DNA of 48,243 nucleotides from a phage. Under the pieces are notes generated by a model that did no database searches, had not been told where the DNA came from, and saw nothing but the letters and a program-made list of their open reading frames with translations. A program made the translations under genes and the position numbers. This document shows positions 1 to 48,243 of this stretch, in pieces (positions within the stretch are counted from its first letter, which is position 1; each line of letters begins with the position of its first letter). Location of the stretch: sequence record PZ150741.1. One strand, written 5' to 3'.

Positions 1-35
1 GGAGATGCAACAATACAAACACCAATAAAATTTAC

Positions 36-64
36 TTGCACACTAAGATAGAATATGCTACTAT
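36..64 (+). promoter_or_regulatory. sigma70-like promoter (TTGCAC-17 bp-TACTAT)
   Basis: -35 TTGCAC at 36-41, 17-bp spacer, -10 TACTAT at 59-64; followed by conserved leader AACGAGAGGAGAGG and ATG at 95. Confidence 0.6.
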
Positions 65-94
65 TCATTTACACAAACGAGAGGAGAGGCAGAT

Positions 95-244
95 ATGGTT
101 ACTTTGATGGTTATGGAGTTCGAAAACAGCACCGCAACTTACCGCGAGATGACTATGGCGCAGGCGTATCACCTGGCCTCAAACGGCAACTTCTACAAGG
201 CCCAAATCATCAACGAGTTCGGGGTAATTGACTATGAATTTTAA
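95..244 (+). CDS. hypothetical small protein (49 aa)
   Basis: ATG at 95 preceded by GAGGAGAGG Shine-Dalgarno; stop overlaps next start (ATGA); below the 60-aa ORF-track cutoff. Confidence 0.45.
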   Translation: MVTLMVMEFENSTATYREMTMAQAYHLASNGNFYKAQIINEFGVIDYEF

Positions 245-506
245 CAGTTACACCGTTACCGTTGATTTTGAGGGGCTGGAGCTGCCCCTCCCTAACAACT
301 ACCGGTATATCTCACGCGACTGTAACGGGTTTATTCAGGGGTGGCGGAACAAACCGACAGATACTGAGTTCGGGATGTCTGGCGGGGAAGAGTTGCCGAT
401 CACTTTCGGACATCAGAGTAGCAACGAAGAACTTAAAACCGTGATTCGTAAGTATCGCCGCCGCGGTAACACCGGACTTATAGCAATAACAGGCGCGGTT
501 GAATAA
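234..506 (+). CDS. hypothetical protein (90 aa)
   Basis: Track ORF 228-506; first ATG at 234 with GGGG upstream. Confidence 0.5.
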   Translation: MNFNSYTVTVDFEGLELPLPNNYRYISRDCNGFIQGWRNKPTDTEFGMSGGEELPITFGHQSSNEELKTVIRKYRRRGNTGLIAITGAVE

Positions 507-525
507 ACGAGAGGAGAGACAGAAG

Positions 526-744
526 ATGTTCCTGGAATGCAAATCCTATGAAGGCTATTGGGCGCTGACCAAAAACGACCTGTACCACCTCAAAGAAGAC
601 GGCGACGAGAGCCGCTGCTACATAATAGACGACAATGGCACTGAACTTGATGTCTATTACACCGGGTATGGTCGATGGGCGTTATTGGCGGACGATGACT
701 TTGTGTTCGAAGAATATAACGGAGAGGAGCCAGAAGATGAGTAA
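526..744 (+). CDS. hypothetical protein (72 aa)
   Basis: Track ORF 499-744; ATG at 526 preceded by AACGAGAGGAGAGACAGAAG leader/SD. Confidence 0.5.
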   Translation: MFLECKSYEGYWALTKNDLYHLKEDGDESRCYIIDDNGTELDVYYTGYGRWALLADDDFVFEEYNGEEPEDE

Positions 745-1339
745 CAAAAACGAAGTATTAGAATACCTGATTGACCAGCTACGGCAGCAGCTACCGGTAG
801 TAGATGTAATGGGTGAAATAAAACGGTGGAGCATAGACCGTAGTATTGCTGGCCGAGGTAACTATACCGAAGAGGAAAACGCCGTAATCGATGCTTACAT
901 CGGCCTGGAGCACAACCCATACAAGCAACAGTGCGAAGACCTGGCACATGAGGTGCAGTCACTCAAGAATCAGTTACGCGACGCTTCGGCGCTGGTGGCT
1001 GAGTTACAGAGCGACAACATTAAGAAATCTGAGCACATATCGCACCTGTCGGAACTGGTGGACGAGTTGATGGGGACTATAACGTTAATGAACGGGGACG
1101 TTGAGGCTTACAAAGTTCTACGCAAAGGTGGGTACGTGCCTGAGCAATCCGGTTGCCGTAAGGACGATACCCAGGAATGCGAGCATGAGTGGCGATGTGT
1201 GGTAGTTTTTGGGAATAGACTTGGGACCCCGTATTGCCGTAAATGTGGTGCGGCTAAACCTGAAGAATGCAAGCACGAATGGCAATTTTACGGAGTCGGG
1301 TTTCCTTGTATGTGCCTTAAATGCGGGTTAAAGAAATGA
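738..1339 (+). CDS. hypothetical protein, coiled-coil N-terminus and tandem Cys-rich zinc-ribbon-like C-terminus
   Basis: Track ORF 635-1339; ATG at 738 after GGAGAGGAG SD; C-terminus has two repeats of ECxHEW...CxKCG. Confidence 0.5.
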
Positions 1340-1539
1340 CCAGCATCCTTTTTATCTGGGTACTGTCTGCAGGTCAGATGCATCTGGCGGCATCAGAAAC
1401 GTTTTACTCGATGGAGGCGTGCCGGTCAGCGGCACGCGCCGCAGAGAACGCACACTTCCTGTTTCAGGGCGACAAGCCCAACGATTCAGAGGTACGCGCT
1501 ATCTGCTCACCTAAGCGACTTGGTAAACAGGAGAAGTGA
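1336..1539 (+). CDS. hypothetical small protein with hydrophobic signal-peptide-like N-terminus
   Basis: Track ORF 1321-1539; ATG at 1336 overlaps upstream stop (ATGA); N-terminus MTSILFIWVLSAGQMHLAAS. Confidence 0.4.
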   Translation: MTSILFIWVLSAGQMHLAASETFYSMEACRSAARAAENAHFLFQGDKPNDSEVRAICSPKRLGKQEK

Positions 1540-1541
1540 TT

Positions 1542-1790
1542 ATGGTTAAATTATACGCAGAGCGCGATTTAGAAATGCTCGACATGACTAACAATTACTA
1601 TTCAAGACATGTGATGGCTATGACGGAGGAAGGATTGAACAGTAAATCATCTATCGCTGCTGAGTTGGCGTACCGTGACTGGATTATTGATGAACAGCAA
1701 AAAGAGTTACAGAAATACAAAGACCAGTTCCCGGATTACGTCGAGTGCGCGAACTGTGGGTTGGTCACACATGTGGAAGGGGTAGAGTGA
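1542..1790 (+). CDS. hypothetical protein (82 aa)
   Basis: Track ORF 1536-1790; ATG at 1542 after AGGAGAAG. Confidence 0.45.
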   Translation: MVKLYAERDLEMLDMTNNYYSRHVMAMTEEGLNSKSSIAAELAYRDWIIDEQQKELQKYKDQFPDYVECANCGLVTHVEGVE

Positions 1791-1792
1791 TT

Positions 1793-2011
1793 ATGATATT
1801 CAGAGACCGTAGCAGCTTAAGAACACCGGATTGTCCTACGTTCGAGTTCGAAGACAAAGACGGAGATGTATGCTGTATTCAATTTTATAGAGACGATGAA
1901 GGTGAGTGCGGGCTTGTAGAGTTGCAGGTTTACAGTGAAACCGGTTGTGTTGTATTAAGTGCAGATGATGCGGAATCACTAGCTCGTAAGATACTTGAGG
2001 GCGTTAAATGA
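1793..2011 (+). CDS. hypothetical protein (72 aa)
   Basis: Track ORF 1745-2011; ATG at 1793 after GAAGGGG, follows upstream stop. Confidence 0.45.
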   Translation: MIFRDRSSLRTPDCPTFEFEDKDGDVCCIQFYRDDEGECGLVELQVYSETGCVVLSADDAESLARKILEGVK

Positions 2012-2301
2012 GCCTCGCAACTGACATCCTGAAACGAAGCGGCCTTGCGCCGCTGTCACCGAGAGCGAACACCCAAATATACAAGCGCCGCCGTAATGCG
2101 CTGTACCCCGAGATTCAGGCCAGACGCAAAGCTATCCGCGCCTGTGGATTCCAGAACGGGAAGGCCGTGAATCTCGGTGAGTTTAAAACACAGGAACGCG
2201 CAGCAATCGCTAACCGGTTATTTAATTACTGGAAATCGCTGGGGTACGATGATATTCCGACGAAACCACAGAGACGACAATACATCTGGAGACACAAATA
2301 A
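2008..2301 (+). CDS. hypothetical basic protein (97 aa)
   Basis: Track ORF; start overlaps upstream stop; Arg/Lys-rich. Confidence 0.45.
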   Translation: MSLATDILKRSGLAPLSPRANTQIYKRRRNALYPEIQARRKAIRACGFQNGKAVNLGEFKTQERAAIANRLFNYWKSLGYDDIPTKPQRRQYIWRHK

Positions 2302-2376
2302 ACAACTATTAGGATAATTCCTACCCGTGGTATCCTCCAGTTACTGCATACTTAATACGCACCTGGAGGATTCATC

Positions 2377-2685
2377 TTGGATAAATTTACTGAAACAGTG
2401 ACAGGCTGGCTTCTAGCTGCCGCGCTCGCCGGAGGGGTAATCGGACTACGACAACATAAGTCCGTTATTTCTGGCCCCACCGACGGCTTCTGCTTTATTG
2501 CTACTGGCTTCACTTGCGCCGTATTTGGTGCACCTCTTGCCGCTCAATGGTTCGGAATCACGGGCGACCGTGAAATCGCCGGGTTGGGCTTCATTATCGC
2601 TGTTCTCTGGATGCCTATCTATTCCCGTCTATCCAGTATCGTAGCCGGGGAATACATCGCACGTCGAGGAGGCACAGATGAATGA
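2377..2685 (+). CDS. holin-like membrane protein (about 3 TM segments)
   Basis: TTG start after GGAGGA; three hydrophobic segments; directly upstream of second membrane protein and endolysin. Confidence 0.45.
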   Translation: MDKFTETVTGWLLAAALAGGVIGLRQHKSVISGPTDGFCFIATGFTCAVFGAPLAAQWFGITGDREIAGLGFIIAVLWMPIYSRLSSIVAGEYIARRGGTDE

Positions 2686-2950
2686 GTTATTCTGGTTCGG
2701 CGGTATGCTGGCAATCGGGGGCACATCGCTGTTTAATGTGTACCACCCCAGCGTGGACGATGGGTTATTTGGTAGGGTGCTCTATATCCTGACAGCTATC
2801 GTCTGCGCCGCCGGATGTATCCACTTGCTACAGGGCAGCATGTCCCCGACGCTGCCTGAGACGTTAATCACATTAGTTGCGCTGCGCCAGATTCGCCAGG
2901 CGTGGTTGTCATACGGAGGACATAAGCGTGTCTCGAAATATTTCAGATAA
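2678..2950 (+). CDS. holin/antiholin-like membrane protein (2 TM segments)
   Basis: Two hydrophobic helices; overlaps both neighbours in the lysis cassette. Confidence 0.45.
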   Translation: MNELFWFGGMLAIGGTSLFNVYHPSVDDGLFGRVLYILTAIVCAAGCIHLLQGSMSPTLPETLITLVALRQIRQAWLSYGGHKRVSKYFR

Positions 2951-3416
2951 TGGGTTGCATTTTACCGCTGCGTTCGAGGGATTCCGCGGAACTGCGTATC
3001 GTGCTACGCCGAACGAGAAGTACCTGACTATAGGCTATGGAAGCTACGGTCCGCATGTTAAGGCGGGGCAAACCATCACGCCTGGTCAGGGCTTACTATT
3101 ACTTAATCGCGATATGGCTAAAGCCGTAGTTGCGGTTGATGCGGCGGCGCACCACTCATTGACACAGGCGCAGTTCGATGCAGTGTGCGACCTGGTGTAT
3201 AACGCGGGTGCCGGAGTGATTGCGGCTACTACTGGCACAGGTAAGGCACTGCGTTCTGGCGATATTGCGACACTGCGGGCTAAGCTGGCGCTGTTCATCA
3301 ACCAGAACGGCAAACCGTTACTTGGCTTACGTCGTCGCGTAGCTGGTCGCCTGGCGCTGTTCGACGGTAAACCGTGGCAGGAGGCGGAGGCTATTGGACG
3401 TGCGGTGAAAGGTTGA
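2928..3416 (+). CDS. endolysin, GH24 lysozyme (T4/P22 lysozyme-like)
   Basis: GTG at 2928 after GGAGGA; motifs ISDNG, FEGF...YLTIGYG, QFDAVCDLVYNAG, RRRVAGRLALF resemble P22 gp19/T4 e lysozymes. Confidence 0.85.
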   Translation: MSRNISDNGLHFTAAFEGFRGTAYRATPNEKYLTIGYGSYGPHVKAGQTITPGQGLLLLNRDMAKAVVAVDAAAHHSLTQAQFDAVCDLVYNAGAGVIAATTGTGKALRSGDIATLRAKLALFINQNGKPLLGLRRRVAGRLALFDGKPWQEAEAIGRAVKG

Positions 3417-3480
3417 CACATAAGACTAATCCGACGATACTTAAATCACCTCCTGCTCCATCCCTCTGCTCTCCAGTTTT

Positions 3481-3512
3481 ATCCCGGCCCTGACCCAGCC
3501 GGGATTTTTTTT
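3481..3512 (+). terminator. rho-independent terminator after lysis cassette
   Basis: Hairpin ATCCCGGC-CCTGACCCA-GCCGGGAT followed by T8 run. Confidence 0.8.
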
Positions 3513-3534
3513 ATCTATTTTCTGTAATGAATAG

Positions 3535-3563
3535 TTGACTATTACTCTGACCCCAATTATATT
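3535..3563 (+). promoter_or_regulatory. sigma70-like promoter (TTGACT-17 bp-TATATT)
   Basis: Immediately downstream of terminator; followed by AACGAGAACGGAG leader and ATG at 3598. Confidence 0.55.
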
Positions 3564-3597
3564 TACTTCATCGACAACGAGAACGGAGTAGAGAGAA

Positions 3598-3846
3598 ATG
3601 GGCAACGTATCGACGATAGAAATAACCGAAGAACTCGAAGATAAATGCATCGCATGGACTATGGATAATGACCCGGTTGCTATGTGTAAATTTCCAATGA
3701 AAATCACAGATACCGAAGCATTCAAAGACGCACAACTGATGGCACGCATCGCCGTTAGTAACCTGAGCAATAGCATTCCAGCGGACGCGTTCTGGTTCGC
3801 CGCAATGCAGACACTGAAAGCAGCTTATGCAGGAGAGAAGAAATGA
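3598..3846 (+). CDS. hypothetical protein (82 aa)
   Basis: Track ORF; strong SD GGAGTAGAGAGAA. Confidence 0.5.
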   Translation: MGNVSTIEITEELEDKCIAWTMDNDPVAMCKFPMKITDTEAFKDAQLMARIAVSNLSNSIPADAFWFAAMQTLKAAYAGEKK

Positions 3847-4046
3847 ACAACGTCACCGTTGGCGGCATTTATAAGAGTCGTCACTCTTGGAATGAGGGTG
3901 CAAGATTCATTGTAACCGCGGTTGGGTTGGACCACGTGCTTATCGCGGACCACCCATTGATAAAATTCAATGAATCCTATTTGGAATATTGTGTTGGTAG
4001 AAAGGAGTTCGAGACTAAATTTAAGTTTGCAGGAGAGAAGAAATGA
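3843..4046 (+). CDS. hypothetical protein (67 aa)
   Basis: Track ORF; ATGA overlap; SD AGGAGAGAAG. Confidence 0.5.
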   Translation: MNNVTVGGIYKSRHSWNEGARFIVTAVGLDHVLIADHPLIKFNESYLEYCVGRKEFETKFKFAGEKK

Positions 4047-4201
4047 GTGAACAAGGTCAAGTAAGCCAGCCACTACGAGTAGGCCGTAAAGTCAGTCGCA
4101 CCCCGTTCCCGACACGCGAGGAACTGATGAAACGTAACAGTTTCCCGGGGCCGGACAAGAACAAGTATCTCAATCGTATGTGGGGAGAGCGTAAAGAATG
4201 A
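4043..4201 (+). CDS. hypothetical small protein (52 aa)
   Basis: ATG at 4043 after AGGAGAGAAG; ATGA overlap with next gene; below track cutoff. Confidence 0.4.
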   Translation: MSEQGQVSQPLRVGRKVSRTPFPTREELMKRNSFPGPDKNKYLNRMWGERKE

Positions 4202-4368
4202 AAAAGTTAATTGCAGATGTTGAACTCGGTGATGTTATTCGTATTGATGACGACTACGGCGGCTACGACGTAGTGGTGAAGCACATCGAGTGGGATTCTA
4301 CGTTGCCATTTGTCACGATTAACCGTGAAATAATGTTCACTAAAACTGATTGGGTAGAGGTTCGATAA
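4198..4368 (+). CDS. hypothetical small protein (56 aa)
   Basis: ATG at 4198 after GGGGAGAG; below track cutoff. Confidence 0.4.
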   Translation: MKKLIADVELGDVIRIDDDYGGYDVVVKHIEWDSTLPFVTINREIMFTKTDWVEVR

Positions 4369-4541
4369 TGACTAACAACGAATACGAGAAACTTAGCGTA
4401 GAAGCGGCGACCGGTGAATCTGAAATAGCGTGGATTGACGCCAACATCGAGCACTACCTACGGCAAGTAGACATCCTTATGGAACGCCGCCGTGAACTGA
4501 TTAACCGCTTCAACCTGAACAAAGGTGACGCCAATGCCTAA
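4368..4541 (+). CDS. hypothetical protein (57 aa)
   Basis: Track ORF 4350-4541; ATG at 4368 overlaps upstream TAA. Confidence 0.45.
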   Translation: MTNNEYEKLSVEAATGESEIAWIDANIEHYLRQVDILMERRRELINRFNLNKGDANA

Positions 4542-4719
4542 AATCACAATTGCATCACTAGAGCGCCGTATTCTGGTGCTCGAGTCAGAGAAACAGACGT
4601 TAGGCGGTCAACTGTCGATTAACGGCGAGTTTCAACTGGAGGCGTTTAAGATGCTACTTGAACGCATGAAGGACGAGGAAGATTGGGCGCATTCCTTGCA
4701 AGACCTCTGGCAATACTAA
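4534..4719 (+). CDS. hypothetical coiled-coil protein (61 aa)
   Basis: Track ORF 4525-4719; ATG at 4534 after AAAGGTGA. Confidence 0.45.
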   Translation: MPKITIASLERRILVLESEKQTLGGQLSINGEFQLEAFKMLLERMKDEEDWAHSLQDLWQY

Positions 4720-39440: not shown

Positions 39441-41681
39441 CTATTCCAAATCTTCCTCTGTAACTATCAGCATTTCATTCGGTTCGTATATTGTCTTCGG
39501 TCTTAATCTGTCACCCATCTTTTCCGGTATCCGGTATGTACCGGGAATAACCTCGCCGTTAACATCACACCCTAGCATCAACTCACCGTCCTTCAGCATC
39601 TTCTCAAGATGGTGGTTGGTTATGGCGTGGTCGCCGGAGTTCGCTACTATCTGCCGTTGGGTAAAACCTCGTCCGGTGTCGTCGGACTGTTGCAGGTCTT
39701 CCAGCGCGGCGAGTATTGATTCCTTACGCCCTTCATCCTTCCCACGTTTTACGGCATTCTTTACGTTTTCCTTACCTTCCTTTGTCAGCCCTTCTTCGCG
39801 CTCTTTCTCCTCGTCAGTTTTGAACGGCTCGAAACCCCACGGCATCAACACAAGCGCCTTGTGCGGCTCAGGCAGGTCCAGGTTTACGATTGTGCCGTAC
39901 TCCTCGGTGCTACCCAGGAACTCAACCGCACGGTACTCTTTTGGCGGCGGGGCTTCACGGAACTGTACGGACTCCAGAACCATACCGACAGTTTTCTGTT
40001 GAGGCCCGTGCTTAAATTTCGAGTGGTATACGTTTATCTGACGGTCGGTTGCACGTTCGATTGTCAGTTCCACGTCGACGCCCGCATACAGCGCCCCACT
40101 GCCACGGGCTTTCTTTCCGCCTTTCGGCGTATGGTGAACAACGCCCACCGCGGCTTTAGTCGCATCGCGTACTTCTTTCAGGATGGCGATAACTTTACCC
40201 ATGCCGATTGCCGTCGATGAACTGTTCTCGTCGAACTTATCAATTGTCAGGGCCAGCGTCTGGTTAAGGGTGTCGAACGCGACCATTCCGATAGGTTCAT
40301 CCCCGGCAGTTTCGCGCATGAGCTTAATCAGGCTTTTCAGTTTGCCGACTTCGCCCATATCGATGACATGTACATAATCTTTACCTTCCGCGCCATATTT
40401 AGCCGCGAGTGCATCGATACGTGTACGTGTGGCTGCACCACCCTCACCATCGATATAGAAATGGTGACAACGCTGGGTATCCGCCCCCGCAAACCGGTAA
40501 CCAGCGGCGCTGAGATACATCATACCCAGCGTATAGAACGATTTGTACGTGCCAGATTCCCCGACGATATCCCAGATACAATCCGACGGCATGTACCCTT
40601 CGACGACGAAATCAGCCTTTACCGGTTCCGGTAATTCGTCCTCCTCTGAGTCCTCGTCGTCTTCCAGGTCGTCCAGGCTGCATGAGACGGATTCACGCGC
40701 ACCCCAACCGATGGCCTCTGCCACTTCACTGAATGGCAGCCCGGTCGCATCGCACGCGTACTTCCACACCTCTTTCGGCGACATGCCTTCGGTTGCCGTA
40801 ATGTCGGTGTCGTGAATCATGGTTACGTTCGGAGCTTCATATCCCTCGCGCGGGAAGCACAGCAGGAAGTCGTCCGGGCGCGGTGTCGGGTCGCTGTAGT
40901 TTTCTGCGTGTTCTGGCGTAGCTGGCATTTTCAGTCCGCGGGGTGTCATGACACCGCCGTACTCGAACGCCAGTGCTTCGAACGCATCCGTAAACGCGGT
41001 GCGCAGTTCTTCCGGTATCTGGTAATCCGATGCGCTGCTAACGTCAACGGCGGGGATGCCTTCCAGTAACTCGTCCGGGTCAATCAGGTCGTTGCGGCGC
41101 GACCAGATAACCTGAGAGCCAACCGGCGGCAGGTACATCGGCTGCGACAGAGTAAAACCGCTGCGGTCGGCGCCCATGCCTTTGAAGAAGTGTTCCAGCA
41201 GCCCATGACGAACACGGGTGATGTCGCCACCCTCAACCGGACGGCCCAGCGGCATGACGACGCGAAAGCGCGGGGACTCATCGGTATGGGATGCCGTGGT
41301 GTAGAGGCACATAGCCCGGCGGCTGCGCTTAACCAGGCGCACCGCTTCCTGGTACTCTTCCGGTGTTGCGCTGTCGAAGTCCAGATACGCCAGCGACGAT
41401 TTGCTTACAGAAGCGTCGCAGCGGTATAAAAAGCCTTTGCGCGCTTGCTTAAAGTCACCAGTTTCCGGGTCTTTTACGGTGCTGTGTGTAGAGTCACACG
41501 CGGCGGTGATATAGCCGGGCGCAGTCTTAGGGTTAACCCCATCGCGAACGGCATCGAGCGGCTGAATTAACTCTTTCAGGTCGTCCAGTGTTGCCGTGTG
41601 TGTGGTTCTGACGTTTATATCCTTTTTCTCTGCTCTCGCGTTGCGACGTGACCACGAGTAGGATAAAATTGCATCGGACAT
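39441..41681 (-). CDS. primase-helicase (N-terminal primase-like region plus RecA/DnaB-like NTPase)
   Basis: Walker A GESGTYKS and downstream acidic Walker B-like VAFD; 746 aa, large N-terminal domain; placement in replication block. Confidence 0.55.
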   Translation of the reverse strand: MSDAILSYSWSRRNARAEKKDINVRTTHTATLDDLKELIQPLDAVRDGVNPKTAPGYITAACDSTHSTVKDPETGDFKQARKGFLYRCDASVSKSSLAYLDFDSATPEEYQEAVRLVKRSRRAMCLYTTASHTDESPRFRVVMPLGRPVEGGDITRVRHGLLEHFFKGMGADRSGFTLSQPMYLPPVGSQVIWSRRNDLIDPDELLEGIPAVDVSSASDYQIPEELRTAFTDAFEALAFEYGGVMTPRGLKMPATPEHAENYSDPTPRPDDFLLCFPREGYEAPNVTMIHDTDITATEGMSPKEVWKYACDATGLPFSEVAEAIGWGARESVSCSLDDLEDDEDSEEDELPEPVKADFVVEGYMPSDCIWDIVGESGTYKSFYTLGMMYLSAAGYRFAGADTQRCHHFYIDGEGGAATRTRIDALAAKYGAEGKDYVHVIDMGEVGKLKSLIKLMRETAGDEPIGMVAFDTLNQTLALTIDKFDENSSSTAIGMGKVIAILKEVRDATKAAVGVVHHTPKGGKKARGSGALYAGVDVELTIERATDRQINVYHSKFKHGPQQKTVGMVLESVQFREAPPPKEYRAVEFLGSTEEYGTIVNLDLPEPHKALVLMPWGFEPFKTDEEKEREEGLTKEGKENVKNAVKRGKDEGRKESILAALEDLQQSDDTGRGFTQRQIVANSGDHAITNHHLEKMLKDGELMLGCDVNGEVIPGTYRIPEKMGDRLRPKTIYEPNEMLIVTEEDLE

Positions 41682-41739
41682 GTTGTATTTCCTTCAGCAA
41701 GTAATTTGGCCTCGGCGTTCACCGCGTCGGGGCTTTCTT

Positions 41740-41973
41740 TTATTCCAGGTCTTCTAAAGTAGCGGTCATTCCGCGAACTTCGGCAACGGCGCTATATTTC
41801 CCGCCAACGTTTTTCACGACACCGGATTTAACCAGAACACGTAACGACCCTTCAATAATGGCGGAACTATAGTACTTAAAATAACTACGGCGCAAGTCGA
41901 TAACACTGCACGACCCTTTTTTACGTGTTAACGAAACGACTGCTGTGAATACTCGTGACTGGAACTCGGTCAT
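41740..41973 (-). CDS. hypothetical protein (77 aa)
   Basis: Track ORF; ATGA-coupled to upstream HTH gene. Confidence 0.45.
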   Translation of the reverse strand: MTEFQSRVFTAVVSLTRKKGSCSVIDLRRSYFKYYSSAIIEGSLRVLVKSGVVKNVGGKYSAVAEVRGMTATLEDLE

Positions 41974-42140
41974 TTCACGTTCTCCTTAATCCACGCTTCC
42001 ACTTTCTCCGGGTCGAACGTACCTGGCTGCCGGCGGCCCATAATGCGAATACAACAATCCGGGAACTTTCCACTCTTTAACCAGTTATTCAGCGTGCGAC
42101 GGGTAACCCCGATACGCTCAGCTACCTCATTCTGCGTCAT
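41970..42140 (-). CDS. AlpA/excisionase-like HTH DNA-binding protein (56 aa)
   Basis: MTQNEVAERIGVTRRTLNNWLKSGKFP resembles AlpA-family HTH; first gene after leftward promoter; below track cutoff. Confidence 0.55.
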   Translation of the reverse strand: MTQNEVAERIGVTRRTLNNWLKSGKFPDCCIRIMGRRQPGTFDPEKVEAWIKENVK

Positions 42141-42172
42141 TCTCAAACCCTCATCATCAGTTAACGAAACAA

Positions 42173-42201
42173 AGTATACATTGCGAATAATGGGAAATCA
42201 A
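42173..42201 (-). promoter_or_regulatory. sigma70-like promoter (TTGATT-17 bp-TATACT) for leftward operon
   Basis: Reverse complement gives TTGATT, 17-bp spacer, TATACT about 30 nt upstream of ATG 42140. Confidence 0.5.
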
Positions 42202-42475
42202 ACATAATCGCACCTATTGACATTATGAAAATCTTCGTTTAAGGTGCTTCTATATCTTAGTTACTTTGATTCCTGTTCACCTTGTAAATCCGCTTAAACC
42301 GTGCGTTAAGCAAAGGGTTAAGCGCAAGTTTACTGAACATGAGAATTATTGTAACTTTCCTTCCTAAGTATCTCAGGTTGCCCTGGGCGAGCTATATTCT
42401 CATCGGCAGCATATCTCTTAAGTATCTGATTTTCTTAAAGTGCCGTAGATTCGCAACCGTAAAAATGTAACCCTT

Positions 42476-42506
42476 ACCGGGCAGGCTTAAGGCCTGCCCT
42501 TTAGTT
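42476..42506 (+). terminator. terminator hairpin GGGCAGGC-TTAAG-GCCTGCCC plus TTTAGTT inside control region
   Basis: 8-bp perfect stem plus T-rich tail; no annotated upstream + strand gene. Confidence 0.5.
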
Positions 42507-42571
42507 ACCAAGTAATAAGAATAAAGGCACAACCTTCCCTAAAGAATCACAACGGCAACGTAACTATTCTC

Positions 42572-42600
42572 TTGCACACCCCAACATAATAGGATACTAT
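42572..42600 (+). promoter_or_regulatory. sigma70-like promoter (TTGCAC-17 bp-TACTAT)
   Basis: TTGCACACCCCAACATAATAGGATACTAT; followed by AACGAGACAGAGGAG leader and ATG 42635. Confidence 0.65.
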
Positions 42601-42634
42601 TCACTTATCGAAACGAGACAGAGGAGTGAGGGTT

Positions 42635-42820
42635 ATGTTTAAGAAGGGTCAGTTGGTGAAAACGAAAGATTACGGTTATTACGGTGTTATCGAACAAATT
42701 TCAAATGATGTTATCGGGATGTACTACATCTATATACCTGACGGGCGTTTCGGTAAGTGGTGCTTTGGCGATGAGATAACACTAATCGGCAACAATTTTA
42801 AATTCAAAGGGGCGAAGTGA
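42635..42820 (+). CDS. hypothetical small protein (61 aa)
   Basis: Track ORF 42626-42820; ATG at 42635 after GAGGAGTGAGGG. Confidence 0.5.
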   Translation: MFKKGQLVKTKDYGYYGVIEQISNDVIGMYYIYIPDGRFGKWCFGDEITLIGNNFKFKGAK

Positions 42821-43059
42821 TGCAAATCATAATTACAGATAACACAGTTTCCTACGAAAAAGGTGACGACGATACTTTGGAAAGCATAGGTGTAAATATA
42901 GGTGACGTTTTCGAGGTGCTTGGTCCTGTATCAGGCGGATGGTGGATTAAGGTTGGGCGCTACAAAGTTCCGGTAAGTAAAGCCGAAGCGGAAATACACA
43001 CAACGGCATCGAATCACGATGCTCGTGCCGACGACTCTGAGGGAGGTTGCCGTGAATAA
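42820..43059 (+). CDS. hypothetical protein (79 aa)
   Basis: Track ORF 42817-43059; ATG 42820 overlaps upstream stop. Confidence 0.45.
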   Translation: MQIIITDNTVSYEKGDDDTLESIGVNIGDVFEVLGPVSGGWWIKVGRYKVPVSKAEAEIHTTASNHDARADDSEGGCRE

Positions 43060-43119
43060 TTACCCGTTTATTTTAATCATCAGCGCCGTTTATGCGGTGC
43101 ACGCGTTGTGGGGGTTGTT

Positions 43120-43263
43120 ATGAGAGAAGCATTTGAACGGTGGGCCGTCGTCGAGGGGCTGCCGGTTAACAAGGGTTCAAAGAAAGAGTACCTGAACGTC
43201 AAGACGCGTCTCGCGTGGCGGGCGTGGAAAGCCGGGGTGTTGTCTGTGATGAATAAGGGGTGA
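43120..43263 (+). CDS. hypothetical small protein (47 aa)
   Basis: ATG at 43120; Trp/Arg-rich; below track cutoff. Confidence 0.3.
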   Translation: MREAFERWAVVEGLPVNKGSKKEYLNVKTRLAWRAWKAGVLSVMNKG

Positions 43264-43266
43264 GAT

Positions 43267-43464
43267 ATGAGTGAATGGATTAAGTGCAGTGAGCGGATGC
43301 CAGGTGATTTTGAAGATGTTCTGGTTACTGATGGGGTCTATGTAGAAGTTATGTGGTTAGATTGTGATGGGTATTGGGATAGTCGGGTAGAGTCGTGGGC
43401 GGTTACGGTGGACCGGGAAGATATAACACACTGGATGCCGTTACCAGAGCCGCCGGAAGTGTGA
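43267..43464 (+). CDS. hypothetical protein, DUF551-like (tentative)
   Basis: Track ORF; C-terminal WMPLPEPP resembles small phage DUF551 proteins. Confidence 0.45.
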   Translation: MSEWIKCSERMPGDFEDVLVTDGVYVEVMWLDCDGYWDSRVESWAVTVDREDITHWMPLPEPPEV

Positions 43465-43495
43465 TGTTCAATAGTTTGGGATTTTACTGAGTGAC

Positions 43496-43530
43496 TTACG
43501 CTGCTACACAGCAGCGTATCATTTTTCTCA
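43496..43530 (+). terminator. rho-independent terminator ACGCTGC-TACACA-GCAGCGT plus T-runs
   Basis: 7-bp stem followed by ATCATTTTTCTCATTTTT; immediately upstream of repeat/promoter. Confidence 0.7.
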
Positions 43531-43611
43531 TTTTTGTTCTATTTCACGAAACGCAACAATTGAAGCTACTATTGCAGGAGATGCAACAATACAAACACCA
43601 ATAAAATTTAC

Positions 43612-43640
43612 TTGCACACTAAGATAGAATATGCTACTAT
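43612..43640 (+). promoter_or_regulatory. sigma70-like promoter, copy of 36-64
   Basis: Duplicate within repeat. Confidence 0.6.
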
Positions 43641-43670
43641 TCATTTACACAAACGAGAGGAGAGGCAGAT

Positions 43671-43820
43671 ATGGTTACTTTGATGGTTATGGAGTTCGAA
43701 AACAGCACCGCAACTTACCGCGAGATGACTATGGCGCAGGCGTATCACCTGGCCTCAAACGGCAACTTCTACAAGGCCCAAATCATCAACGAGTTCGGGG
43801 TAATTGACTATGAATTTTAA
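43671..43820 (+). CDS. hypothetical small protein (copy of 95-244)
   Basis: Duplicate within repeat. Confidence 0.45.
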   Translation: MVTLMVMEFENSTATYREMTMAQAYHLASNGNFYKAQIINEFGVIDYEF

Positions 43821-44082
43821 CAGTTACACCGTTACCGTTGATTTTGAGGGGCTGGAGCTGCCCCTCCCTAACAACTACCGGTATATCTCACGCGACTGTA
43901 ACGGGTTTATTCAGGGGTGGCGGAACAAACCGACAGATACTGAGTTCGGGATGTCTGGCGGGGAAGAGTTGCCGATCACTTTCGGACATCAGAGTAGCAA
44001 CGAAGAACTTAAAACCGTGATTCGTAAGTATCGCCGCCGCGGTAACACCGGACTTATAGCAATAACAGGCGCGGTTGAATAA
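43810..44082 (+). CDS. hypothetical protein (copy of 234-506)
   Basis: Duplicate within repeat. Confidence 0.5.
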   Translation: MNFNSYTVTVDFEGLELPLPNNYRYISRDCNGFIQGWRNKPTDTEFGMSGGEELPITFGHQSSNEELKTVIRKYRRRGNTGLIAITGAVE

Positions 44083-44101
44083 ACGAGAGGAGAGACAGAA
44101 G

Positions 44102-44320
44102 ATGTTCCTGGAATGCAAATCCTATGAAGGCTATTGGGCGCTGACCAAAAACGACCTGTACCACCTCAAAGAAGACGGCGACGAGAGCCGCTGCTACATA
44201 ATAGACGACAATGGCACTGAACTTGATGTCTATTACACCGGGTATGGTCGATGGGCGTTATTGGCGGACGATGACTTTGTGTTCGAAGAATATAACGGAG
44301 AGGAGCCAGAAGATGAGTAA
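44102..44320 (+). CDS. hypothetical protein (copy of 526-744)
   Basis: Duplicate within repeat. Confidence 0.5.
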   Translation: MFLECKSYEGYWALTKNDLYHLKEDGDESRCYIIDDNGTELDVYYTGYGRWALLADDDFVFEEYNGEEPEDE

Positions 44321-44915
44321 CAAAAACGAAGTATTAGAATACCTGATTGACCAGCTACGGCAGCAGCTACCGGTAGTAGATGTAATGGGTGAAATAAAAC
44401 GGTGGAGCATAGACCGTAGTATTGCTGGCCGAGGTAACTATACCGAAGAGGAAAACGCCGTAATCGATGCTTACATCGGCCTGGAGCACAACCCATACAA
44501 GCAACAGTGCGAAGACCTGGCACATGAGGTGCAGTCACTCAAGAATCAGTTACGCGACGCTTCGGCGCTGGTGGCTGAGTTACAGAGCGACAACATTAAG
44601 AAATCTGAGCACATATCGCACCTGTCGGAACTGGTGGACGAGTTGATGGGGACTATAACGTTAATGAACGGGGACGTTGAGGCTTACAAAGTTCTACGCA
44701 AAGGTGGGTACGTGCCTGAGCAATCCGGTTGCCGTAAGGACGATACCCAGGAATGCGAGCATGAGTGGCGATGTGTGGTAGTTTTTGGGAATAGACTTGG
44801 GACCCCGTATTGCCGTAAATGTGGTGCGGCTAAACCTGAAGAATGCAAGCACGAATGGCAATTTTACGGAGTCGGGTTTCCTTGTATGTGCCTTAAATGC
44901 GGGTTAAAGAAATGA
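44314..44915 (+). CDS. zinc-ribbon-like protein (copy of 738-1339)
   Basis: Duplicate within repeat. Confidence 0.5.
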
Positions 44916-45115
44916 CCAGCATCCTTTTTATCTGGGTACTGTCTGCAGGTCAGATGCATCTGGCGGCATCAGAAACGTTTTACTCGATGGAGGCGTGCCG
45001 GTCAGCGGCACGCGCCGCAGAGAACGCACACTTCCTGTTTCAGGGCGACAAGCCCAACGATTCAGAGGTACGCGCTATCTGCTCACCTAAGCGACTTGGT
45101 AAACAGGAGAAGTGA
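44912..45115 (+). CDS. hypothetical small protein (copy of 1336-1539)
   Basis: Duplicate within repeat. Confidence 0.4.
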   Translation: MTSILFIWVLSAGQMHLAASETFYSMEACRSAARAAENAHFLFQGDKPNDSEVRAICSPKRLGKQEK

Positions 45116-45117
45116 TT

Positions 45118-45366
45118 ATGGTTAAATTATACGCAGAGCGCGATTTAGAAATGCTCGACATGACTAACAATTACTATTCAAGACATGTGATGGCTATGAC
45201 GGAGGAAGGATTGAACAGTAAATCATCTATCGCTGCTGAGTTGGCGTACCGTGACTGGATTATTGATGAACAGCAAAAAGAGTTACAGAAATACAAAGAC
45301 CAGTTCCCGGATTACGTCGAGTGCGCGAACTGTGGGTTGGTCACACATGTGGAAGGGGTAGAGTGA
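45118..45366 (+). CDS. hypothetical protein (copy of 1542-1790)
   Basis: Duplicate within repeat. Confidence 0.45.
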   Translation: MVKLYAERDLEMLDMTNNYYSRHVMAMTEEGLNSKSSIAAELAYRDWIIDEQQKELQKYKDQFPDYVECANCGLVTHVEGVE

Positions 45367-45368
45367 TT

Positions 45369-45587
45369 ATGATATTCAGAGACCGTAGCAGCTTAAGAAC
45401 ACCGGATTGTCCTACGTTCGAGTTCGAAGACAAAGACGGAGATGTATGCTGTATTCAATTTTATAGAGACGATGAAGGTGAGTGCGGGCTTGTAGAGTTG
45501 CAGGTTTACAGTGAAACCGGTTGTGTTGTATTAAGTGCAGATGATGCGGAATCACTAGCTCGTAAGATACTTGAGGGCGTTAAATGA
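45369..45587 (+). CDS. hypothetical protein (copy of 1793-2011)
   Basis: Duplicate within repeat. Confidence 0.45.
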   Translation: MIFRDRSSLRTPDCPTFEFEDKDGDVCCIQFYRDDEGECGLVELQVYSETGCVVLSADDAESLARKILEGVK

Positions 45588-45877
45588 GCCTCGCAACTGA
45601 CATCCTGAAACGAAGCGGCCTTGCGCCGCTGTCACCGAGAGCGAACACCCAAATATACAAGCGCCGCCGTAATGCGCTGTACCCCGAGATTCAGGCCAGA
45701 CGCAAAGCTATCCGCGCCTGTGGATTCCAGAACGGGAAGGCCGTGAATCTCGGTGAGTTTAAAACACAGGAACGCGCAGCAATCGCTAACCGGTTATTTA
45801 ATTACTGGAAATCGCTGGGGTACGATGATATTCCGACGAAACCACAGAGACGACAATACATCTGGAGACACAAATAA
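45584..45877 (+). CDS. hypothetical basic protein (copy of 2008-2301)
   Basis: Duplicate within repeat. Confidence 0.45.
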   Translation: MSLATDILKRSGLAPLSPRANTQIYKRRRNALYPEIQARRKAIRACGFQNGKAVNLGEFKTQERAAIANRLFNYWKSLGYDDIPTKPQRRQYIWRHK

Positions 45878-45952
45878 ACAACTATTAGGATAATTCCTAC
45901 CCGTGGTATCCTCCAGTTACTGCATACTTAATACGCACCTGGAGGATTCATC

Positions 45953-46261
45953 TTGGATAAATTTACTGAAACAGTGACAGGCTGGCTTCTAGCTGCCGCG
46001 CTCGCCGGAGGGGTAATCGGACTACGACAACATAAGTCCGTTATTTCTGGCCCCACCGACGGCTTCTGCTTTATTGCTACTGGCTTCACTTGCGCCGTAT
46101 TTGGTGCACCTCTTGCCGCTCAATGGTTCGGAATCACGGGCGACCGTGAAATCGCCGGGTTGGGCTTCATTATCGCTGTTCTCTGGATGCCTATCTATTC
46201 CCGTCTATCCAGTATCGTAGCCGGGGAATACATCGCACGTCGAGGAGGCACAGATGAATGA
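45953..46261 (+). CDS. holin-like membrane protein (copy of 2377-2685)
   Basis: Duplicate within repeat. Confidence 0.45.
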   Translation: MDKFTETVTGWLLAAALAGGVIGLRQHKSVISGPTDGFCFIATGFTCAVFGAPLAAQWFGITGDREIAGLGFIIAVLWMPIYSRLSSIVAGEYIARRGGTDE

Positions 46262-46526
46262 GTTATTCTGGTTCGGCGGTATGCTGGCAATCGGGGGCAC
46301 ATCGCTGTTTAATGTGTACCACCCCAGCGTGGACGATGGGTTATTTGGTAGGGTGCTCTATATCCTGACAGCTATCGTCTGCGCCGCCGGATGTATCCAC
46401 TTGCTACAGGGCAGCATGTCCCCGACGCTGCCTGAGACGTTAATCACATTAGTTGCGCTGCGCCAGATTCGCCAGGCGTGGTTGTCATACGGAGGACATA
46501 AGCGTGTCTCGAAATATTTCAGATAA
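46254..46526 (+). CDS. holin/antiholin-like membrane protein (copy of 2678-2950)
   Basis: Duplicate within repeat. Confidence 0.45.
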   Translation: MNELFWFGGMLAIGGTSLFNVYHPSVDDGLFGRVLYILTAIVCAAGCIHLLQGSMSPTLPETLITLVALRQIRQAWLSYGGHKRVSKYFR

Positions 46527-46990
46527 TGGGTTGCATTTTACCGCTGCGTTCGAGGGATTCCGGAACTGCGTATCGTGCTACGCCGAACGAGAAGTACCTG
46601 ACTATAGGCTATGGAAGCTACGGTCCGCATGTTAAGGCGGGGCAAACCATCACGCCTGGTCAGGGCTTACTATTACTTAATCGCGATATGGCTAAAGCCG
46701 TAGTTGCGGTTGATGCGGCGGCGCACCACTCATTGACACAGGCGCAGTTCGATGCAGTGTGCGACCTGGTGTATAACGCGGGTGCCGGAGTGATTGCGGC
46801 TACTACTGGCACAGGTAAGGCACTGCGTTCTGGCGATATTGCGACACTGCGGGCTAAGCTGGCGCTGTTCATCAACCAGAACGGCAAACCGTTACTTGGC
46901 TTACGTCGTCGCGTAGCTGGTCGCCTGGCGCTGTTCGACGGTAAACCGTGGCAGGAGGCGGAGGCTATTGGACGTGCGGTGAAAGGTTGA
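46504..46990 (+). pseudogene. endolysin copy disrupted by 2-bp deletion (frameshift)
   Basis: Relative to 2928-3416, CGCG becomes CG at 46561; reading frame breaks after FEGFR; track splits it into 46453-46635 and 46526-46990. Confidence 0.8.
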
Positions 46991-47054
46991 CACATAAGAC
47001 TAATCCGACGATACTTAAATCACCTCCTGCTCCATCCCTCTGCTCTCCAGTTTT

Positions 47055-47085
47055 ATCCCGGCCCTGACCCAGCCGGGATTTTTTT
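47055..47085 (+). terminator. terminator copy with T7 instead of T8
   Basis: Same hairpin as 3481-3512, one T shorter. Confidence 0.8.
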
Positions 47086-47107
47086 ATCTATTTTCTGTAA
47101 TGAATAG

Positions 47108-47136
47108 TTGACTATTACTCTGACCCCAATTATATT
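47108..47136 (+). promoter_or_regulatory. sigma70-like promoter, copy of 3535-3563
   Basis: Duplicate within repeat. Confidence 0.55.
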
Positions 47137-47170
47137 TACTTCATCGACAACGAGAACGGAGTAGAGAGAA

Positions 47171-47419
47171 ATGGGCAACGTATCGACGATAGAAATAACC
47201 GAAGAACTCGAAGATAAATGCATCGCATGGACTATGGATAATGACCCGGTTGCTATGTGTAAATTTCCAATGAAAATCACAGATACCGAAGCATTCAAAG
47301 ACGCACAACTGATGGCACGCATCGCCGTTAGTAACCTGAGCAATAGCATTCCAGCGGACGCGTTCTGGTTCGCCGCAATGCAGACACTGAAAGCAGCTTA
47401 TGCAGGAGAGAAGAAATGA
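47171..47419 (+). CDS. hypothetical protein (copy of 3598-3846)
   Basis: Duplicate within repeat. Confidence 0.5.
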   Translation: MGNVSTIEITEELEDKCIAWTMDNDPVAMCKFPMKITDTEAFKDAQLMARIAVSNLSNSIPADAFWFAAMQTLKAAYAGEKK

Positions 47420-47619
47420 ACAACGTCACCGTTGGCGGCATTTATAAGAGTCGTCACTCTTGGAATGAGGGTGCAAGATTCATTGTAACCGCGGTTGGGT
47501 TGGACCACGTGCTTATCGCGGACCACCCATTGATAAAATTCAATGAATCCTATTTGGAATATTGTGTTGGTAGAAAGGAGTTCGAGACTAAATTTAAGTT
47601 TGCAGGAGAGAAGAAATGA
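47416..47619 (+). CDS. hypothetical protein (copy of 3843-4046)
   Basis: Duplicate within repeat. Confidence 0.5.
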   Translation: MNNVTVGGIYKSRHSWNEGARFIVTAVGLDHVLIADHPLIKFNESYLEYCVGRKEFETKFKFAGEKK

Positions 47620-47774
47620 GTGAACAAGGTCAAGTAAGCCAGCCACTACGAGTAGGCCGTAAAGTCAGTCGCACCCCGTTCCCGACACGCGAGGAACTGA
47701 TGAAACGTAACAGTTTCCCGGGGCCGGACAAGAACAAGTATCTCAATCGTATGTGGGGAGAGCGTAAAGAATGA
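47616..47774 (+). CDS. hypothetical small protein (copy of 4043-4201)
   Basis: Duplicate within repeat. Confidence 0.4.
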   Translation: MSEQGQVSQPLRVGRKVSRTPFPTREELMKRNSFPGPDKNKYLNRMWGERKE

Positions 47775-47941
47775 AAAAGTTAATTGCAGATGTTGAACTC
47801 GGTGATGTTATTCGTATTGATGACGACTACGGCGGCTACGACGTAGTGGTGAAGCACATCGAGTGGGATTCTACGTTGCCATTTGTCACGATTAACCGTG
47901 AAATAATGTTCACTAAAACTGATTGGGTAGAGGTTCGATAA
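47771..47941 (+). CDS. hypothetical small protein (copy of 4198-4368)
   Basis: Duplicate within repeat. Confidence 0.4.
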   Translation: MKKLIADVELGDVIRIDDDYGGYDVVVKHIEWDSTLPFVTINREIMFTKTDWVEVR

Positions 47942-48114
47942 TGACTAACAACGAATACGAGAAACTTAGCGTAGAAGCGGCGACCGGTGAATCTGAAATA
48001 GCGTGGATTGACGCCAACATCGAGCACTACCTACGGCAAGTAGACATCCTTATGGAACGCCGCCGTGAACTGATTAACCGCTTCAACCTGAACAAAGGTG
48101 ACGCCAATGCCTAA
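47941..48114 (+). CDS. hypothetical protein (copy of 4368-4541)
   Basis: Duplicate within repeat. Confidence 0.45.
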   Translation: MTNNEYEKLSVEAATGESEIAWIDANIEHYLRQVDILMERRRELINRFNLNKGDANA

Positions 48115-48243
48115 AATCACAATTGCATCACTAGAGCGCCGTATTCTGGTGCTCGAGTCAGAGAAACAGACGTTAGGCGGTCAACTGTCGATTAACGGCG
48201 AGTTTCAACTGGAGGCGTTTAAGATGCTACTTGAACGCATGAA
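48107..48243 (+). CDS. hypothetical protein, 3'-truncated by window end (copy of 4534-4719)
   Basis: Duplicate within repeat; ORF runs off the window. Confidence 0.4.
   Translation, partial: MPKITIASLERRILVLESEKQTLGGQLSINGEFQLEAFKMLLERM

Follow-up and report, generated by a model that had tools for sequence, protein, structure and literature searches.

A candidate structured early RNA in the conserved control region between the divergent genome arms of Kagunavirus and Jerseyvirus phages

Genomic context of the non-coding gap

The window analyzed here (sequence record PZ150741.1; the whole stretch of 48,243 nt) comprises one full siphovirus genome (~43.6 kb) of Kagunavirus-like type (Guernseyvirinae), extended by a 4.7-kb wrap-around. 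Because its 4.67-kb head (positions 1–4670) equals its tail (43577–48243; 99.94% identity, 3-nt length difference), the unit genome is ~43,576 bp, and features within the repeated part are counted twice in whole-window scans. The host of the phage is E. coli. The element described here lies where the two divergent genome arms part: on the left, the − strand arm encodes a 58-aa HTH_17 (helix-turn-helix) protein, the 77-aa p77 (phrog_5169), and a 746-aa primase-helicase; on the right, the + strand arm carries small early genes, followed by lysis, packaging, and structural genes. An earlier note, made from the sequence alone, described the gap between them as a control region of ~490 bp free of open reading frames (ORFs), and proposed that it holds a ~250-nt non-coding transcript and/or an iteron-type replication origin. 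All of the features listed there are present at their coordinates, and the overall interpretation is partly supported. The unannotated unit encodes no protein yet is kept, in some parts as structure and in others as exact sequence, in hundreds of related E. coli and Salmonella phages, and is therefore very probably functional, as a non-coding RNA or as a control or replication element. Its parts, from left to right, are as follows.

42147–42634: non-coding gap, between the HTH start codon at 42146 on the left and the ATG of the first early gene at 42635 on the right
42201–42173, − strand: leftward sigma70 promoter (−35 TTGATT 42201–42196, 17-nt spacer, −10 TATACT 42178–42173), driving the HTH/p77/primase-helicase operon
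42217–42245, + strand: candidate internal sigma70 promoter, from its sequence pattern (−35 TTGACA 42217–42222, 17-nt spacer, −10 TAAGGT 42240–42245)
42257–42359, + strand: 5′ domain, a ~100-nt rod-like hairpin predicted from folding and covariation
42360–42438, + strand: central sequence-conserved block, with a C/U-rich linker (UUCCUUCCU), a direct repeat, and a weak helix
42362–42373 and 42416–42427: copies 1 and 2 of the direct repeat
42419–42431, − strand: motif AATCAGATACTTA, resembling the core site of integration host factor (IHF); the reverse complement of repeat copy 2 plus GATT, preceded by the A/T-rich tract CTTTAAGAAA
42440–42530, + strand: 3′ module a, a predicted ~90-nt extended hairpin (GUGCC-GUAG-AUUC 42440–42452; GUAAC 42467–42471; tip; GUUAC 42504–42508; GAAU-AAA-GGCAC 42519–42530)
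42479–42499, + strand: GC-rich tip hairpin of module a, GGGCAGGC-UUAAG-GCCUGCCC (DNA GGGCAGGC-TTAAG-GCCTGCCC), followed by UUUAGUUAC (TTTAGTTAC) to 42508
42441–42446 with 42552–42557, + strand: alternative long-range closing helix, UGCCGU/ACGGCA, with AGAUUC pairing to GAAUC at 42544–42548
42572–42600, + strand: rightward early promoter (−35 TTGCAC, 17-nt spacer, −10 TACTAT), upstream of the first early gene (ATG 42635)

The gap is indeed devoid of conserved coding sequence: its ORFs reach merely 33–46 aa and are unconserved, no ORF of at least 30 aa occurs on either strand of the gap in Jersey-type relatives, and no conserved ORF was found overall. Matching DNA is present in 396–450 phage records, mostly Escherichia Kagunavirus and Salmonella Jerseyvirus, the latter with a longer non-coding gap (~600–1,230 bp). 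A search of 5,426 E. coli genomes returned no match to the element, and an origin from the host or a prophage was rejected on this ground. A metagenome scan identified 12 loci only and added little diversity.

A covarying 5′ hairpin

The 5′ domain is predicted to consist of a basal helix P1 (AGUUAC 42259–42264/GUAACU 42351–42356), helices P2 and P3, a conserved CCUU bulge, P4, and a hypervariable distal P5/P6. The same topology was recovered in 36/36 distinct variants, each folded independently; the fold z-score is −3.8, and the domain ranks among the most stable 100-nt windows of the rightward arm. Column identity in the distal part falls to 0.76, as compared with 0.95–0.97 in the flanks, and 16 close Kagunavirus sequences contain 15 distinct versions of it. 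In a set of 16 Kagunavirus-type sequences, 98.9% of cells are paired, against 29–40% with partners slid; double-sided changes occur in five pairs, one-sided changes in none, and the covariation score was reached by 0/500 shuffles. A covariance model (R1) built solely from this set detects the Jerseyvirus 5′ domains, which blastn cannot align to the window, end to end at 27–32 bits. Across the combined 29 distinct Kagunavirus and Jerseyvirus sequences, 98.1% of cells are paired (27–43% with partners slid), double-sided changes occur in 11/29 pairs, and 99 cells are compensated, versus 35.9 ± 4.3 in shuffles (reached in 0/500). Within P4, for example, one position is occupied by A-U, G-C, and U-A pairs and another by A-U, G-U, and G-C pairs. 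That the hairpin is held by compensatory substitutions in two genera argues that it folds as a single strand. The TTAAGC/CTTAAG motifs previously listed as repeats prove to be arms and loops of these covarying helices.

Watson–Crick covariation is symmetric between the strands, and the helices that it supports hence offer a fairer setting in which to ask which strand folds. Non-Watson–Crick cells within them comprise 26 G-U and 3 A-C combinations. Fourteen Kagunaviruses share one fixed G-U, and 12 Jerseyviruses share another. The G-U excess favors a + strand RNA, in agreement with the orientation of the candidate internal promoter.

Jerseyvirus loci carry a small perfect palindrome, GUAACUU-C-AAGUUAC, at the predicted start of the transcript just past the −10 box (e.g., extracted positions ~150–170 in locus L018), which competes with helix P1 (AAGUUACUU/AAGUAACUU); Kagunaviruses do not have it. 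The palindrome is a possible alternative 5′ structure.

Promoters flanking and within the gap

The candidate internal promoter (TTGACA-17-TAAGGT) had been picked out before, and shows the conservation pattern of a real promoter: in an alignment of relatives CACCTATTGACAT is invariant while the spacer varies. Its 17-nt spacer is within the 16–18 nt usual for sigma70, its −35 box matches the consensus at 6/6 positions, and its −10 box does so at 3/6, keeping A2 and T6; the −10 box reads TAAGGT in Kagunavirus, TAAGTT in Jerseyvirus, and TAAGCT in Snoke, and L088-type phages have TTGAAA-18-TATAAT in its place. This pattern of conserved hexamers and variable spacer supports promoter function, with a predicted transcription start near A42252. 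The candidate stands back to back with the leftward early promoter, the two together making up the A/T-rich stretch of the region.

Both outer promoters proposed earlier are borne out. The leftward promoter was detected by a promoter scan (9/12 hexamer matches), both of its hexamers are invariant and its spacer variable across 25 aligned Kagunavirus and Jerseyvirus sequences, and the relative PVP-SE2 has an annotated promoter at the same site. The rightward early promoter falls under the scan threshold; its hexamers are invariant and its spacer variable among the 25 relatives, and it belongs to a phage-wide family, TTGCRCAC-N7-ATAATAGGnTACTATTCA, with seven unique sites as compared with 0.04 expected by chance. 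Copies lie at 42586, 43626 (equivalent to 50), 39118, 39162, and 36527 on the + strand and at 10861 and 19708 on the − strand; four share the upstream TTGCRCAC, and each precedes a ribosome-binding site (RBS) and gene. In a study of Kagunavirus fBC-Eco01, PHIRE recovered the same consensus, which was ascribed there to a phage polymerase (PMC9825357). Because the early genes own a complete promoter, the upstream stretch from candidate promoter to hairpin looks like a separate unit.

Across the promoter family, the spacer is highly conserved and contains a palindrome, AATAG..CTATT, which suggests that an additional factor binds there. The two − strand copies drive genes within the structural arm. 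A further candidate, an antisense promoter on the − strand at 42376–42348, was rejected since its hexamers are unconserved.

Central block and IHF-like motif

The central block is 90–91% identical in nucleotide sequence between the window and Jersey phages, and block and module a together (42360–42530) are 90–96% identical between the genera, the most conserved DNA of the neighborhood; in the same window-versus-Jersey comparison the helicase gene reaches 67–74%, p77 70–80%, and the HTH gene 85–88%, and the early genes are not alignable. Short direct repeats had been reported at about 42365 and 42418, and are confirmed as two copies kept in both genera: the genome contains exactly two occurrences of TAAGTATCT (42365 and 42419), within a longer 12–15-nt repeat, TCYTWAGTATCT(GA), whose copies lie 53–54 bp apart. 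A helix between them, GUUGCC (42377–42382)/GGCAGC (42405–42410), shows one-sided changes only (U-G to C-G, U-A to U-G) and is weakly supported.

Repeat copy 2 overlaps a candidate IHF site, proposed from its match to the consensus. The motif at 42419–42431 is the sole match to WATCARNNNNTTR in the region (0.08 expected) and one of seven in the genome. Five of its 10 distinct forms (45 loci) are perfect, with changes at W and N positions only; the other five (8 loci) carry one mismatch. A bipartite core, TAAGTnnCTGA(tt) plus a TGCCG-purine-rich-TT half, survives in the window, Snoke, L005/L015, and Jersey forms, and its first half, read on the − strand, is the IHF core consensus match; the L088/L043 type retains only the TGCCGTAGATT half.

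The 3′ hairpin module

Module a adopted the same fold in 23/23 distinct variants, folded independently, and its closing motif is unique in the genome. Its stems are invariant and its internal loops variable; because the closing stems are conserved and do not covary, their pairing in RNA is a prediction. The tip hairpin scores as terminator-like, with nine pairs, seven of them G-C, and a tail (UUUAGUUA) that passes the scan; six terminator-like sites were found in all, against 3.1 ± 1.8 in shuffles. The strong hairpin with a T tail described earlier (42476–42506) is thus present and scores as terminator-like, but its tail is weak (UUU-AG-UU; three T, AG, two T) and doubles as one strand of the GUAAC/GUUAC helix. 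The label of orphan terminator also needs revision, since the hairpin forms only the tip of a longer one, of ~90 nt, the 3′ strand of which is located past the T tract. The tip's position is conserved and the hairpin is kept with four or more unrelated sequences: variants include GGGCAGGT/ACCTGCCC (compensated), GGGTGGGC/GCCCACCC, GGTGCC/GGCACC in Snoke, and CACTTGCC/GGCAAG.G in a second module, b. Within module a, CCCUUUAGUUAC is invariant in all variants.

Module b, found in Jerseyviruses, is a colinear tandem paralogue of module a; the two share their closing helices, but the tip of module b (CACUUGCC/GGCAAG.G) is unrelated and is not followed by a U tract. Structural alignment of the two modules with MAFFT was off by one column at the tip. 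In the Snoke and L005/L015 types, the alternative closing helix listed above, there UUGCCGU/ACGGCAA, is the sole one to be had, and it extends almost to the early promoter. In the window this helix stops 14 nt short of the −35 box of the early promoter, and it could form in RNA only with read-through of the tip hairpin.

A third inverted repeat of this extended kind, ACGGCAAAAGATTC ... GAATCTTGG ... TTGCCGT, precedes the RBS of the second rightward gene directly in Jerseyviruses (extracted intergenic coordinates ~830–900 in L018, ~645–715 in L024, ~785–850 in L002, and ~590–655 in L023). The closing-stem motifs of modules a and b, GGCA/UGCC and GAUUC/GAAUC, appear in it again.

Modularity and linkage among relatives

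At least five architectures can be distinguished among relatives: the window type; L005/L015, with a different 3′ module; L088/L043, with a different promoter and 5′ hairpin and the same module a; Snoke, in which all parts differ; and Jersey, with modules a and b or b only. With at least three kinds of 5′ hairpin and at least four kinds of 3′ hairpin, the RNA appears to be built of exchangeable modules.

The rod-like 5′ domain is always found together with p77 and a primase N-terminal domain of window type, and gives way to other sequence in a Snoke-type setting. Snoke and the window share high amino acid identity in TerS (94%), TerL (97%), the portal protein (97%), Cro (96%), and the HTH protein (86%); their primase-helicases are 32% identical, and p77 has no counterpart in Snoke. 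The linked blocks are all contiguous, so that the linkage may be functional or reflect simple mosaicism. In L088 and L043, both IMG/VR contigs, the primase-helicase is chimeric: its N-terminal part is of Snoke type and residues ~354–746 are 94% identical to the window, which points to recombination inside the gene at the primase/helicase domain boundary.

Searches for known families and mechanisms

The earlier note had suggested a covariance-model search; run against Rfam 15 as a permissive cmscan of 41000–44000 on both strands, it gave no family match; the top hit, Hrs12, scored 23.2 bits where its gathering threshold is 70 (E = 1.2), and no other family came close. No tRNA or tmRNA was found in the region. 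An iteron-type origin, for which at least three direct repeats of ~17–22 bp, an adjacent A/T-rich unwinding element, and often DnaA boxes would be expected, is unsupported: the region has two 12–15-nt repeat copies, no tandem repeats, no exact DnaA boxes, and no GATC sites or clusters. The P4-type iteron TGTTCACC was rejected as a single copy without clustering. Tandem Repeats Finder reported no array in the region, and the element accordingly does not resemble type III antitoxins, with their ~34–45-nt repeats, or other tandem-repeat RNAs.

Several regulatory mechanisms were also rejected. The motif TGCCGTAG resembles the RfaH ops element (GGCGGTAGnnTG on the non-template strand), but T-G-C-C-G-T-A-G-A-T-T-C has C at ops position 4 and module b also lacks ops T6; recruitment of RfaH to ops requires G4, G5, A7, and G8, and G4C abolishes it in vitro (PMC5995543). 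A Q- or AlpA-type antitermination cassette finds no Q/AlpA family support in the neighboring HTH protein: the 58-aa product matches only PF12728 HTH_17 and an excisionase domain, with no significant Phage_AlpA match and no PDB match with E below 0.3. Queried against 170 phage translation starts, the conserved single-stranded segments showed no pairing beyond that of shuffled seeds; this, and a U tail of 3 U only where a long one for Hfq would be expected, speaks against a small RNA that acts in trans by pairing with phage mRNAs. Complementarity of 42463–42477 to the start of gene 1 was found only in the window and L014, without covariation. The genome-reduction study CiPGr concerned phage seszw, a Skatevirus, and is irrelevant here. 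Our literature search found no published description of the element and no transcript, origin, or packaging-site mapping for the region.

Flanking genes and transcription units

Modeling makes p77 no more than a generic winged helix: its best PDB match has an E-value of 6e-3, and the five single-sequence models disagree. The first ~8 codons of the first early gene (42635–42660; ATGTTTAAGAAGGGTCAGTTGGT, MFKKGQLV) are common to Kagunaviruses and Jerseyviruses, and the rest of the gene diverges past alignment (homologous starts in L001–L025); the conserved DNA at its start may be part of the control element or a recombination boundary. Two Kagunavirus contigs (L011, L013) have a ~140-bp insertion directly upstream of the HTH gene (alignment columns at 42135–42141), which adds a small leftward ORF fused to or overlapping the start of that gene.

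Two further terminator-like hairpins lie outside the gap. One, at 43497–43518 on the + strand (9-bp stem, then TCATTTTTCT), ends the first ~0.9 kb of rightward early genes and is followed by an A/T-rich stretch within 43520–43640 and the next family promoter (43626), suggesting that the rightward arm is split into several transcription units. The other, at 41708–41734 on the + strand (11 pairs, then TTCTTTTATT), lies between the − strand p77 and helicase genes; it may be a bidirectional terminator or a chance match.

Discussion

The reading that we prefer, and hold with moderate confidence, is that the gap specifies an early non-coding RNA, transcribed as a unit of its own, which is structured and modular and has a leaky hairpin at its 3′ end. 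In outline, the ~250-nt transcript proposed earlier is supported by the promoter pattern, the covariation of the 5′ domain, the bias of G-U over A-C, and the absence of an ORF; the hairpin and repeats, on whose conservation in relatives that proposal had been made to depend, are both kept across genera. Under this model, host RNA polymerase would start near 42252 right after infection and produce a structured RNA. A fraction of polymerases would stop at the tip hairpin and its UUU (~42503–42508), yielding an RNA of ~255 nt; the remainder would read through, whereupon the extended 3′ hairpin would close and transcription would enter the early operon. The RNA would most likely act locally, with the adjacent regulatory and replication module, and not by pairing with phage mRNAs.

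Several observations weigh against this model. The −10 box of the candidate internal promoter matches the consensus at three positions, for which reason the promoter scan did not list it, and the sole Kagunavirus transcriptomics is gene-level (PMC12645636). The 29-sequence alignment (A5) was itself fitted to the covariance model, and the independent lineages behind it are few, roughly 6–8 distal-stem types plus the genus split. The G-U asymmetry represents about two evolutionary events only; single-sequence folding, consensus folding, comparison of minimum free energies, and G-U counts on strand-specific predictions did not separate the strands. In module a, invariant stems with variable loops fit sequence-specific recognition of DNA as well as they fit RNA structure. 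The U tract is missing in L005/L015 and in module-b variants and interrupted in Snoke, and the Jerseyviruses L017, L024, and L025 lack the module-a hairpin segment and have module b only; termination is thus not a conserved property. Stopping at the tip hairpin would be at best partial, and is not the conserved function of the hairpin.

The rival explanations are variants of, or complements to, the structured-RNA reading. Read-through figures centrally in one that we consider unlikely, though credible: that the 42217 promoter is an upstream early promoter and the region a cis-acting structured leader or attenuator of the rightward early operon, within a ~385-nt RNA whose long hairpins serve as attenuator, processing (RNase III-type), or stabilizing elements and not as the end of a small RNA. 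Only with read-through could the closing helices of module a and the universal UGCCGU/ACGGCA helix form, since they are located past the T tract; the hairpins of module b and L005/L015 are without a U tract, and in Jersey phages with module b only, no terminator-like element separates the 42217-type promoter from gene 1. Modules a and b and the third hairpin before gene 2 also recur along the Jersey early transcript. A leader is harder to reconcile with the complete family promoter that the early genes own ~35 nt upstream of the start codon, with the invariance and terminator-like score of CCCUUUAGUUAC in module-a variants, and with a closing motif that does not recur in the window's own early operon; RNA pairing in the closing stems, conserved and not covarying, is moreover predicted. 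The invariant 3′ block with its IHF-like site could instead act as DNA, as a transcription-activated origin or, less likely, a packaging (pac) site. A replication origin of this type, which we regard as rather unlikely, would use the block and an IHF bend as the start site for the T7-like primase-helicase and Pol A, with the promoter and structured transcript activating or priming as at T7 ori, T4 R-loop origins, and ColE1 RNA II. The region adjoins the replication operon, is the most conserved DNA nearby, has an IHF-core match at a universally kept motif, and combines the lowest GC content of the genome with its cumulative GC-skew minimum. The 5′ rod co-occurs with the window-type primase N-terminal domain and p77, and in Snoke, whose helicase is annotated as T7 gp4-like and is 32% identical, p77 is absent while TerS, TerL, and portal stay 94–97% identical despite the replaced replication parts. 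Specificity loops of priming and copy-control RNAs are hypervariable with their structure kept, as is the distal stem-loop here. However, the GC-skew minimum, which had been put forward as a check on the origin, coincides exactly with the gene strand switch and carries no independent information; neither iterons nor tandem repeats, DnaA boxes, or GATC sites occur in the region. Plain mosaicism may explain the linkage, given that all the linked blocks adjoin one another, and recombinants break it: L015 combines a window-type helicase with a different 3′ module, and L088 a chimeric helicase and module a with a different 5′ hairpin. SETP3-like phages are without module a. The winged helix of p77 is merely generic.

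Two further explanations place the function wholly in DNA. In one, which is improbable, the repeats and inverted repeats are operators bound by the HTH_17, p77, or Cro-like protein to control the divergent promoters, and any RNA is incidental. Three small DNA-binding proteins are indeed encoded nearby, the conserved direct repeat has a spacing of ~5 turns, GTAAC/GTTAC motifs recur near promoters, and module a has invariant stems and variable loops; yet a 100-nt hairpin with 11 compensated pairs in sequence diverged past blastn is unlike operator evolution, the conserved block lies 110–290 bp from either divergent promoter, and the type of HTH protein tracks the left promoter region and not module a. 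In the other, which we judge about as improbable, the universal core (TAAGTnnCTGAtt + TGCCGTAGrTT) and IHF bend form a pac region or physical terminus recognized by the small terminase. IHF is used at P1 pac and lambda cosB, and Snoke, with a TerS 94% identical, retains the core. In four Jerseyvirus records, all from one project, the linear sequence is opened inside the block, at the equivalents of ~42373, ~42413, ~42437, and ~42460 (NC_073217, pink; NC_073201, dunkel; MT074473, blauehaus; NC_073202, celemicas), their starts bracketing the IHF-like site; orientation on the type phage does not account for these starts, as the record of that phage begins at terS. Headful packaging of pac type has been reported for Jerseyviruses, though its site was not located (PMC10783031). 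Against this, the four break points differ, celemicas has no terminal repeat, and an assembly or coverage artifact at a structured region would explain the breaks equally well; terS, in or beside which pac sites usually lie, is 6.6 kb downstream, and with 651x coverage of Kagunavirus fBC-Eco01, PhageTerm detected no obvious termini (PMC9825357). A pac site would also leave the promoter and covarying hairpin unexplained.

As a structured early RNA, the element is new in itself but of a known kind, that of phage control-region non-coding RNAs or structured leaders. The lambda 6S RNA is a short constitutive leader that ends at a terminator before the lysis and structural genes and is read through after Q modification. 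Like the PR′-6S RNA-tR′ unit, the element has a candidate sigma70 promoter, a predicted non-coding RNA of ~200–250 nt, and a hairpin with some U residues after it; a long rightward arm of small, lysis, and structural genes follows, and a gene for a small DNA-binding protein lies next door. Unlike lambda, no Q- or AlpA-like antiterminator was found, the HTH protein being a generic PF12728 member; the downstream genes own a promoter, the RNA is strongly structured and conserved, and the U tract is weak or absent in some variants. The oop RNA of lambda, sar of P22, c4 of P1/P7, and CI RNA of P4 are similarly short non-coding transcripts with their own promoter and a 3′ hairpin in an early regulatory region. 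These RNAs are antisense to, or processed from, neighboring genes of temperate phages; the present unit belongs to a virulent phage, is much longer (~255 nt as predicted), overlaps no gene, and has no above-chance complementarity to phage translation starts. The repeated, extended, promoter-proximal hairpins with internal loops in Jerseyviruses (a, b, and the third) recall the T7 early RNase III hairpins and HK022 put RNA, a likeness drawn from hairpin architecture alone; the window has one such module only. With ColE1 RNA II, the T7 primary origin, and T4 R-loops the element shares a candidate host-type promoter beside replication genes and a predicted structured 5′ RNA with a hypervariable, structure-keeping stem-loop, in a genome encoding a T7-like primase-helicase and a family A polymerase. 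It differs from them in that no conserved antisense partner promoter, R-loop-forming G/C tract, or primosome assembly site was identified, and its linkage to the replication module may be mere adjacency.

Kagunavirus and Jerseyvirus (Guernseyvirinae) are among the most often isolated phages of E. coli and Salmonella, are used in therapy and biocontrol cocktails, and are represented in the BASEL collection. The gap, 490–900 bp long, has been left unannotated or filled with spurious small ORFs in more than 400 of their genomes. Nowhere in the early region is the DNA conserved more strongly than here, and the gap also contains a covarying ~100-nt RNA hairpin. These data provide a concrete candidate for an early regulatory RNA and/or origin and a seed alignment for a new RNA family; deletion or "refactoring" of the gap during genome engineering would likely be harmful. 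A more speculative proposition, and quite an unlikely one, is that the unit is a transcript-dependent origin of a kind new for virulent siphoviruses relying on host RNA polymerase, in which an RNA from a host sigma70 promoter, bearing a hypervariable specificity stem-loop, and an IHF-bent invariant DNA block would together initiate replication, or license it, for the T7-like primase-helicase and the family A polymerase of the phage. If this were true, the exchangeable hairpin modules would define replicon specificity between co-infecting relatives, and a link to replication, if real, would raise the importance of the element.

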